Shown: positions 61,401 through 64,000 of the stretch, in pieces
Layout: each line of letters starts with the position of its first letter
Position numbering within the stretch: position 1 is the stretch's first letter
NCBI RefSeq assembly: GCF_029227855.1
Contig: NZ_CP074357.1
From: Escherichia coli
GTDB lineage: Bacteria; Pseudomonadota; Gammaproteobacteria; Enterobacterales; Enterobacteriaceae
Strand: one strand, 5' to 3'
DNA length: 64,000 nt
Made by a program: the position numbers

Positions 61401-64000
61401 AGCTGCAGGAGATGCTGGCTGAACGCGGAGTGAATGTCGATCACTCCACGATTTACCGCTGGGTTCAGCGTTATGCGCCTGAAATGGAAAAACGGCTGCG
61501 CTGGTACTGGCGTAACCCTTCCGATCTTTGCCCGTGGCACATGGATGAAACCTACGTGAAGGTCAATGGCCGCTGGGCGTATCTGTACCGGGCCGTCGAC
61601 AGCCGGGGCCGCACTGTCGATTTTTATCTCTCCTCCCGTCGTAACAGCAAAGCTGCATACCGGTTTCTGGGTAAAATCCTCAACAACGTGAAGAAGTGGC
61701 AGATCCCGCGATTCATCAACACGGATAAAGCGCCCGCCTATGGTCGCGCGCTTGCTCTGCTCAAACGCGAAGGCCGGTGCCCGTCTGACGTTGAACACCG
61801 ACAGATTAAGTACCGGAACAACGTGATTGAATGCGATCATGGCAAACTGAAACGGATAATCGGCGCCACGCTGGGATTTAAATCCATGAAGACGGCTTAC
61901 GCCACCATCAAAGGTATTGAGGTGATGCGTGCACTACGCAAAGGCCAGGCCTCAGCATTTTATTATGGTGATCCCCTGGGCGAAATGCGCCTGGTAAGCA
62001 GAGTTTTTGAAATGTAAGGCCTTTGAATAAGACAAAAGGCTGCCTCATCGCTAACTTTGCAACAGTGCCTTCTACGGCACGTTTGAAGGCGCGCTGAAAG
62101 GTCTGGTCATACATGTGATGGCGACGCACGACACCGCTCCGTGGATCGGTCGAATGCGTGTGCTGCGCAAAAACCCAGAACCACGGCCAGGAATGCCCGG
62201 CGCGCGGATACTTCCGCTCAAGGGCGTCGGGAAGCGCAACGCCGCTGCGGCCCTCGGCCTGGTCCTTCAGCCACCATGCCCGTGCACGCGACAGCTGCTC
62301 GCGCAGGCTGGGTGCCAAGCTCTCGGGTAACATCAAGGCCCGATCCTTGGAGCCCTTGCCCTCCCGCACGATGATCGTGCCGTGATCGAAATCCAGATCC
62401 TTGACCCGCAGTTGCAAACCCTCACTGATCCGCATGCCCGTTCCATACAGAAGCTGGGCGAACAAACGATGCTCGCCTTCCAGAAAACCGAGGATGCGAA
62501 CCACTTCATCCGGGGTCAGCACCACCGGCAAGCGCCGCGACGGCCGAGGTCTTCCGATCTCCTGAAGCCAGGGCAGATCCGTGCACAGCACCTTGCCGTA
62601 GAAGAACAGCAAGGCCGCCAATGCCTGACGATGCGTGGAGACCGAAACCTTGCGCTCGTTCGCCAGCCAGGACAGAAATGCCTCGACTTCGCTGCTGCCC
62701 AAGGTTGCCGGGTGACGCACACCGTGGAAACGGATGAAGGCACGAACCCAGTGGACATAAGCCTGTTCGGTTCGTAAGCTGTAATGCAAGTAGCGTATGC
62801 GCTCACGCAACTGGTCCAGAACCTTGACCGAACGCAGCGGTGGTAACGGCGCAGTGGCGGTTTTCATGGCTTGTTATGACTGTTTTTTTGGGGTACAGTC
62901 TATGCCTCGGGCATCCAAGCAGCAAGCGCGTTACGCCGTGGGTCGATGTTTGATGTTATGGAGCAGCAACGATGTTACGCAGCAGGGCAGTCGCCCTAAA
63001 ACAAAGTTAGACATCATGAGGGTAGCGGTGACCATCGAAATTTCGAACCAACTATCAGAGGTGCTAAGCGTCATTGAGCGCCATCTGGAATCAACGTTGC
63101 TGGCCGTGCATTTGTACGGCTCCGCAGTGGATGGCGGCCTGAAGCCATACAGCGATATTGATTTGCTGGTTACGGTGACCGTAAGGCTTGATGAAACAAC
63201 GCGGCGAGCTTTGATCAACGACCTTTTGGAAACTTCGGCTTCCCCTGGAGAGAGCGAGATTCTCCGCGCTGTAGAAGTCACCATTGTTGTGCACGACGAC
63301 ATCATTCCGTGGCGTTATCCAGCTAAGCGCGAACTGCAATTTGGAGAATGGCAGCGCAATGACATTCTTGCAGGTATCTTCGAGCCAGCCACGATCGACA
63401 TTGATCTGGCTATCTTGCTGACAAAAGCAAGAGAACATAGCGTTGCCTTGGTAGGTCCAGCGGCGGAGGAACTCTTTGATCCGGTTCCTGAACAGGATCT
63501 ATTTGAGGCGCTAAATGAAACCTTAACGCTATGGAACTCGCCGCCCGACTGGGCTGGCGATGAGCGAAATGTAGTGCTTACGTTGTCCCGCATTTGGTAC
63601 AGCGCAGTAACCGGCAAAATCGCGCCGAAGGATGTCGCTGCCGACTGGGCAATGGAGCGCCTGCCGGCCCAGTATCAGCCCGTCATACTTGAAGCTAGAC
63701 AGGCTTATCTTGGACAAGAAGAAGATCGCTTGGCCTCGCGCGCAGATCAGTTGGAAGAATTTGTCCACTACGTGAAAGGCGAGATCACCAAGGTAATCGG
63801 CAAATAATGTCTAACAATTCGTTCAAGCCGACCGCGCTACGCGCGGCGGCTTAACTCCGGCGTTGTGCTGACGAAAAAAAACAAAAATCTGCGTATACCT
63901 TTCCTCATAATCTGTGGCTTCAATAAAAGGATATTTCTATGCTTCAACTGAAAATGATCGAACTCTTCAAGGAAGGTTGTCATGAGGATGCACGAATAAT

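Follow-up and report, generated by a model that had tools for sequence, protein, structure and literature searches.

The aadA22 cassette of an IS26-truncated class 1 integron from Escherichia coli is an aadA2/aadA1/aadA2 mosaic

The integron and its first two cassettes

The window (the whole stretch of 64,000 nucleotides of Escherichia coli contig NZ_CP074357.1 that was analysed) is nearly colinear throughout with IncHI2 plasmids such as pXJW9B277-HI2-N. Its last part contains a class 1 integron truncated by IS26, and the cassette described here sits on an IncHI2-type multiresistance plasmid. The insertion sequence lies on the plus strand at 61250-62069 (820 bp, tnpA at 61313-62017), is bounded by the terminal inverted repeats GGCACTGTTGCAAA and TTTGCAACAGTGCC, and matches other IS26 copies in the window at 100%; an IS26 transposase is also annotated in an identical plasmid stretch. 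IS26 removes the 3' end of the integrase gene intI1, leaving 798 of its 1014 bp as an open reading frame on the minus strand (62070-62867). The same IS26/intI1 junction is found in plasmid pMUR050, while a full-length intI1 of 1014 bp is annotated at the equivalent position relative to aadA22 in two other plasmids (L001 and L007).

Two integron promoters were located by pattern matching on the plus strand. The single exact match to Pc is the weak variant PcW (TGGACA-17 bp-TAAGCT, 62752-62780), which lacks the TGN extended -10 because position 62773 is C and not G. P2 (TTGTTA-17 bp-TACAGT) lies at 62871-62899 and is active through a GGG insertion at 62890-62892. A generic sigma-70 scan of 62700-63020 called no promoter. 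The PcW and P2 hexamers are those defined by Jove et al. 2010 (PMC2791841; Table 1 for PcW), and according to the same work P2 is the main source of expression when PcW and P2 occur together, being about seven times as strong as PcW. The aadA22 cassette would be transcribed from PcW and the GGG-activated P2. We also noted a longer reading frame starting at 62797, which is a read-through out of the integron 5' conserved segment.

The attI1/cassette junction was read directly at 63006-63012 (plus strand, core GTTAGAC), and matches exactly the one that precedes aadA2 at attI1 in three plasmid loci (L004, L011 and L012). IntI1 crosses over at core sites between G and TT (G|TT), and the cassette begins at T63007. 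The complete aadA22 cassette spans 63007-63862 on the plus strand (856 bp) and carries an aadA2-type attC; gene and attC together are 100% identical to many plasmids annotated with aadA22. The attC, or 59-base element, occupies 63809-63868 (plus strand), with the inverse core GTCTAAC at 63809-63815 and the core GTTGTGC at 63862-63868. Its bottom strand folds into a predicted hairpin of -16.4 kcal/mol (z = -2.8). The locus thus has the core sites, the position at attI1, the intI1 remnant with Pc and the hairpin-capable attC of a class 1 integron cassette. aadA22 is the first cassette after attI1, and the lnu(F)/linG lincosamide nucleotidyltransferase cassette follows directly past attC. The latter starts at 63863 on the plus strand, is cut by the window end at 64000 and is 100% identical to plasmids annotated with lnu(F); its annotated ATG is at 63939 (mapped from position 8690 of L006), with a further in-frame ATG at 63920.

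The aadA22 gene and its product

The open reading frame at 63016-63807 (plus strand; ATG 63016-63018, TAA 63805-63807) is aadA22 and encodes an ANT(3'')-Ia streptomycin/spectinomycin adenylyltransferase of 263 residues. An exact-sequence look-up returned the NCBI name 'ANT(3'')-Ia family aminoglycoside nucleotidyltransferase AadA22', with the exact protein recorded on at least 1000 contigs. The frame is identical to the NCBI reference allele in DNA (100%) and in protein, and all the best plasmid matches to the 792-bp gene are annotated aadA22 at 100% nucleotide identity. AMRFinder likewise gives aadA22 at 100% in plasmids with identical DNA. At 99% identity or more, the gene was found in 304 plasmid records (PLSDB; about 300 plasmids), and the gene with its attC in 166 complete E. 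coli genome records. aadA22 is, consequently, an already named and very widespread allele, and its presence here is an ordinary finding. Beyond bookkeeping its significance is small, as hundreds of sequenced plasmids carry this catalogued resistance allele.

RGI, as used in PLSDB with the CARD reference, labels the same frame aadA23 at 99.61% identity, by our calculation a difference of about one residue in the ~259 amino acids compared. A protein search clustered at 90% does not distinguish the alleles. Typing tools may call this frame aadA22, aadA23, aadA1-like or aadA2-like, according to the part that is matched.

Membership of the AadA family is clear. The protein scores 508 bits with the NCBIfam equivalog model NF012157 (ANT_3pp_I; cut-off 375) and falls narrowly below the cut-off of the allele-specific aadA1 model NF033126 (ANT_3pp_AadA1; 578.9 against 587 bits). 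Two Pfam domains, NTP_transf_2 (residues 28-89) and AadA_C (residues 152-254), both above the gathering score, make up the two-domain AadA architecture, with the nucleotidyltransferase fold N-terminal and the AadA helical domain C-terminal. The translation also contains the G-S ... D-x-D metal-binding motif as G35-S36 and D47-I48-D49, which we take, from established structural work on AadA, to be catalytic metal-binding residues. Residues 6-262 align with a solved AadA structure (PDB 7UY4) at 541 bits. As a member of this family, AadA22 would inactivate streptomycin and spectinomycin by Mg-ATP-dependent adenylylation.

The differences between AadA22 and its two closest namesakes are unevenly placed. 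AadA22 differs from AadA1 at 10 residues, nine of them in positions 3-45 and the tenth being V261I, and from AadA2 at 28 residues, every one at position 55 or later. With aadA2, full-length identity reaches 89.4% in amino acids and 91.7% in nucleotides, well short of near-identity; with aadA1 it is 97.5% over the whole gene and 99.8% in the body.

Three-part structure of the cassette and its relatives

Reference cassettes were taken from annotated plasmids (L002 and L003 for aadA1, L004 and L005 for aadA2; L003 and L004 are 100% matches by AMRFinder) and aligned with the window from attI1 to past attC. The two references differ at 92 cassette sites. Along the window cassette these sites read 20 aadA2, 65 aadA1 and 7 aadA2, in three parental blocks without any internal exception. 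A runs test on the 92 informative sites gives an exact probability of 6.6e-22 for three runs or fewer, and the minimum among 200,000 permutations of the sites was 21 runs.

The first, aadA2-type segment covers 63007-63153 (plus strand, as are all those that follow) and has 20 of 20 diagnostic sites (63010-63153) and no difference from aadA2. It is followed by a first switch interval of 12 bp common to aadA1 and aadA2 (63154-63165), which corresponds to codons 47-50 (D-I-D-L) and lies within what is presumably, from known AadA structures, the nucleotidyltransferase metal-binding motif. The second segment, 63166-63806, is of aadA1 type at 65 of 65 diagnostic sites, and its sole difference from the aadA1 reference is A63796, the base responsible for V261I. 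A second switch interval of 26 bp, again common to both references (63807-63832), runs from the final base of the stop codon into the left end of attC. The third segment, which is the attC up to 63862, returns to aadA2 at seven of seven diagnostic sites (63833-63859). Since the two references are diverged from each other in every segment (20/145, 65/641 and 7/32 sites, or 10-22%), both behave as diverged parents throughout, as would be expected if aadA22 is the recombinant. The aadA22 cassette is a true three-part aadA2/aadA1/aadA2 mosaic.

A first-pass annotation of this DNA had already suggested a recombinant allele, with an aadA2-like start of about 55 residues and an aadA1-like body, quoting the peptide strings MRVAVTIEISNQLSEVLSVIERHLEST and TVRLDETTRRALINDLLETSASPGESEILRAVEV and the C-terminal KVIGK. 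All three strings are present in the translation. The proposed length of the start agrees with a DNA switch at codons 47-50 because the first residue diagnostic of AadA1 is T55, and the body is indeed that of aadA1, A63796 apart. The observation is therefore confirmed, and the site-by-site comparison supports its interpretation as recombination. Both parts of this two-part description are real, but the aadA2-type attC block that joins the gene to lnu(F) was missing from it, as was the fact that the allele has a name and is very common. A complete match to one named allele free of mosaicism had been regarded as fatal to the proposal; the gene does match aadA22 at 100%, but aadA22 is itself clearly mosaic. 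In practice, a PCR or probe assay would report aadA2 if it targets the 5' end and aadA1 if it targets the body.

A63796, which gives the protein end KVIGK, occurs in neither the aadA1 nor the aadA2 references. We considered it as a mutation private to aadA22 and dropped this idea, since the same base occurs in plasmids annotated as pure aadA1. This was confirmed in pSEEH1578_01 (L014), an otherwise pure aadA1 gene that is identical to the second segment of the window at every diagnostic site and also carries A63796. The aadA1-type segment most likely derives from such a variant. The combination of G at 63796 with an aadA2 attC was present in no plasmid searched, the best matches being aadA22 itself at 99.9%. 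Compared with aadA1, whether at attI1 (L003) or as the L014 variant, the gene in the window is of aadA1 type over residues 55-263 and positions 63166-63806, whereas the nine residues in positions 3-45 and the attC are different.

The aadA22 reading frame circulates with two types of attC. That of the window is the aadA2 type linked to lnu(F), while the IncI1 plasmids L001 and L007 carry aadA22 with an attC of aadA1 type, after which come the 3'-CS and IS1. A 90-mer joining the gene end to the aadA2 attC is found exactly in 185 plasmids. The corresponding 90-mer with the aadA1 attC occurs exactly in 160, a mixture of aadA22 and the aadA1 variant. A 96-mer spanning the first switch matches 307 plasmids exactly; as this is about the number of aadA22 records, the first junction is specific to the aadA22 lineage. 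The type of attC separates the two circulating cassette forms, and could help in following the aadA22-lnu(F) module, bounded by IS26, across IncHI2 plasmids.

Genuine aadA2-lnu(F) arrays also exist. A query built from the 3' end and attC of the aadA2 reference, joined to the lnu(F) start of the window, found arrays that match it at 100% from the 3' end of aadA2 through attC to the start of lnu(F). In pMUR050 (NC_007682) the same unit, IS26-intI1(truncated)-aadA-lnu(F)-IS26, is colinear with that of the window from end to end and both IS26 junctions are identical. The two units agree over the first 147 bp of the cassette, in the attC and at the junction to lnu(F), and 67 of the 72 differing positions fall within 63166-63806. 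The window array is structurally an aadA2-lnu(F) unit whose aadA2 interior has been swapped for aadA1 sequence. The P2 GGG insertion complicates this picture. Every aadA22 locus examined has it, and so does the aadA1 integron L003, which has the same PcW and P2 configuration as the window; it is absent from every aadA2-lnu(F) array retrieved. Thus, one patch placed inside a pMUR050-like unit does not account for the full history. A hypothetical parent made of a 5'-CS with GGG, pure aadA2 and lnu(F) had no 100% match in the plasmid search.

Other hybrids of the same two genes were found. In aadA8, from a dfrA12-orfF-aadA8 array (L008), the 5' end is also of aadA2 type and the sequence further 3' of aadA1 type, but the switch lies at 63608-63653 in window numbering instead of 63154-63165, and the aadA1 attC is kept whereas the window returns to aadA2. 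A Providencia variant (L009) switches at 63186-63197. An aadA8-like gene (L015) lies in the same IncHI2 IS26-lnu(F) unit with a pattern of 59 aadA2, 26 aadA1 and 7 aadA2 sites, and has A63796 and the GGG in common with aadA22. The tract at 63608-63653 (46 bp) is the second longest run of identity between aadA1 and aadA2 and has been used at least twice. These differing switch points indicate that exchange between aadA1 and aadA2 cassettes is recurrent.

Both aadA22 and this kind of hybrid were known before, aadA2/aadA1 hybrids having been described since at least 2005. In that year Gestal et al. are said to have reported, in Antimicrob Agents Chemother 49:4771, a hybrid cassette aadA8b made when an array containing aadA2 recombined with an aadA1 cassette, and the 2009 cassette review of Partridge et al. 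in FEMS Microbiol Rev reportedly discusses such hybrids. The title of Gestal et al. 2005 on the aadA8b hybrid is cited in PMC7591504. The literature searched has 191 papers that name aadA22, and its three-part structure was not found spelled out in the few of them that were read.

Origin of the mosaic

We are highly confident that the feature is the aadA22 cassette, a true aadA2/aadA1/aadA2 mosaic that most likely arose by homologous recombination or gene conversion. We propose that aadA1 and aadA2 cassettes co-resident in one cell would recombine homologously (homeologous recombination) or by gene conversion, crossing over within short stretches of identity between the two genes. The donor of the second segment would be an aadA1 variant already carrying A63796. 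The switch intervals of 12 and 26 bp are short for a simple RecA-mediated exchange. A longer heteroduplex in which mismatches were repaired patchily may be required, or else several events in succession. The process could have involved either several successive crossovers or one long heteroduplex repaired in patches.

More tentatively, the window cassette may be a second-generation product of continuing homologous exchanges among aadA cassettes, a possibility that we consider rather doubtful at present. Four forms have common junctions and A63796: aadA22 with the aadA1 attC, aadA22 with the aadA2 attC and lnu(F), the nested hybrid L015, and an otherwise pure aadA1 with this base. If this were true, a stepwise gene conversion between IncI1 and IncHI2 integrons could be reconstructed, and patchy mismatch repair or short-homology recombination might regularly supply new 'alleles' to the catalogues.

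The comparison of three sequences can by itself neither polarise the events nor tell which sequence is the recombinant. It could be argued from this that aadA22 is the unrecombined ancestor, and that aadA1 and aadA2 are each recombinants with unsampled donors. However, aadA1 and aadA2 would then have had to arise in separate recombinations with donors outside the sampled sequences, each of them diverged by about 10-20%. In the plasmid collection each of these two genes outnumbers aadA22 roughly tenfold, and the hybrids with other switch points fit aadA1 and aadA2 as recurrent parents. We therefore give this polarity very little credence.

It is equally improbable that the hybrid is the work of IntI1, acting site-specifically on attC and attI sites, and not of homologous recombination. 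In favour of this, the feature is an integron cassette and its second switch (63807-63832) lies at the left end of attC or close to it. Yet neither switch falls at the G|TT positions, 63006/63007 and 63862/63863. The first is inside the reading frame, at codons 47-50, and the second precedes the attC core by 30-55 bp. With both switches away from the positions where IntI1 crosses over in core sites, an IntI1 origin is unlikely, and homologous recombination or gene conversion is preferred.

An artefact, that is, a chimera formed in assembly or PCR from a genome with both aadA1 and aadA2, has a negligible chance of being the explanation. Some aadA22 plasmids do hold several aadA copies, in up to four places per record, but the window holds a single one, and exactly this sequence recurs on at least 1000 contigs and in about 300 complete plasmids that were sequenced independently and come from many species and countries. 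Just as negligible is an aadA1 derivative without any recombination, with point mutations at its 5' end and in its attC that match aadA2 by chance: close as the gene is to aadA1, all 27 differences in the first and third segments are the exact aadA2 base, in two clusters and with no exception, and the runs test effectively refutes it.

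Variant forms of the aadA22 cassette

Two types of attC site circulate with the aadA22 ORF, as seen when the site of two IncI1 plasmids (6793-6860 in L001, and L007) is compared with that of the window (63808-63870). In the IncI1 plasmids the ORF is followed by an aadA1-type attC and then by the 3'-CS and IS1, while in the window it is followed by an aadA2-type attC and then lnu(F). Both forms share a single name in gene-level typing tools.

A nested aadA mosaic is present in another IncHI2 plasmid, L015 (NZ_CP072803.1, 111477-112325, aligned to 63016-63864 of the window). On the window scale, its sequence is of aadA2 type up to about 63607, then of aadA1 type up to 63806, including A63796, and ends in the aadA2 attC. 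AMRFinder calls this gene aadA8 (99.24%). Like aadA22 in the window, it lies within an IS26-intI1(truncated)-aadA-lnu(F)-IS26 unit, and it looks like a recombinant of aadA22-lnu(F) and aadA2-lnu(F) arrays.

In the part of the downstream lnu(F) gene that lies within the window (63920-64000), an in-frame ATG is present both at 63920 and at 63939. The start given by AMRFinder and RGI maps to 63939; initiation at 63920 instead would add six residues (MLQLKM...).

Two copies of the integron 5' conserved segment

The class 1 integron 5'-CS occurs twice within the window. In the copy that precedes aadA22, P2 (62871-62899) contains the GGG insertion, which results in a 17-bp spacer and an activated promoter. 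The second copy is partial (32096-32676), lies upstream of arr/dfrA-type cassettes and has a P2 region (32544-32569) without GGG and with a 14-bp spacer. Across the loci compared, GGG accompanies aadA22 and one aadA1 integron (L003, the reference), and was not found in the aadA2-lnu(F) arrays retrieved.

IS26 and the resistance region

Five copies of IS26 (31276-32095, 34346-35165, 38719-39500, 56675-57494 and 61250-62069) lie in a resistance region that spans about 30 kb; one copy is incomplete and has a length of 782 bp. This region also carries a CTX-M-family blaCTX-M, blaTEM-1, blaLAP-2 and aac(3)-IId, and further ORFs seem, from their position against the annotated IncHI2/IncN plasmid, to represent mph(A)-mrx(A)-mphR(A), qnrS1 and arr. 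Compared with NZ_CP068042.1, the IncHI2/IncN plasmid that matches best, the window has one block flanked by IS26 in a different place or orientation.

A DUF3883-family gene (59972-61276, + strand) borders with its 3' end on the left inverted repeat of the IS26 copy that begins at 61250. Since its ORF runs on into IS26, the gene appears to be truncated; the junction recurs in many IncHI2 plasmids.

Between blaTEM-1 (51625-52485) and blaLAP-2 (54689-55546), the plasmid encodes a penicillin-binding transpeptidase of 582 aa (52876-54624, + strand) resembling FtsI/PBP3. The protein scores 617 bits with the NCBIfam FtsI model, below the cut-off of 737, and in the matching plasmid it (WP_032623598.1) has no annotation beyond 'penicillin-binding transpeptidase domain-containing protein'. 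Such a PBP3 homologue, carried by a plasmid and adjoining two beta-lactamase genes, may merit a study of its own.
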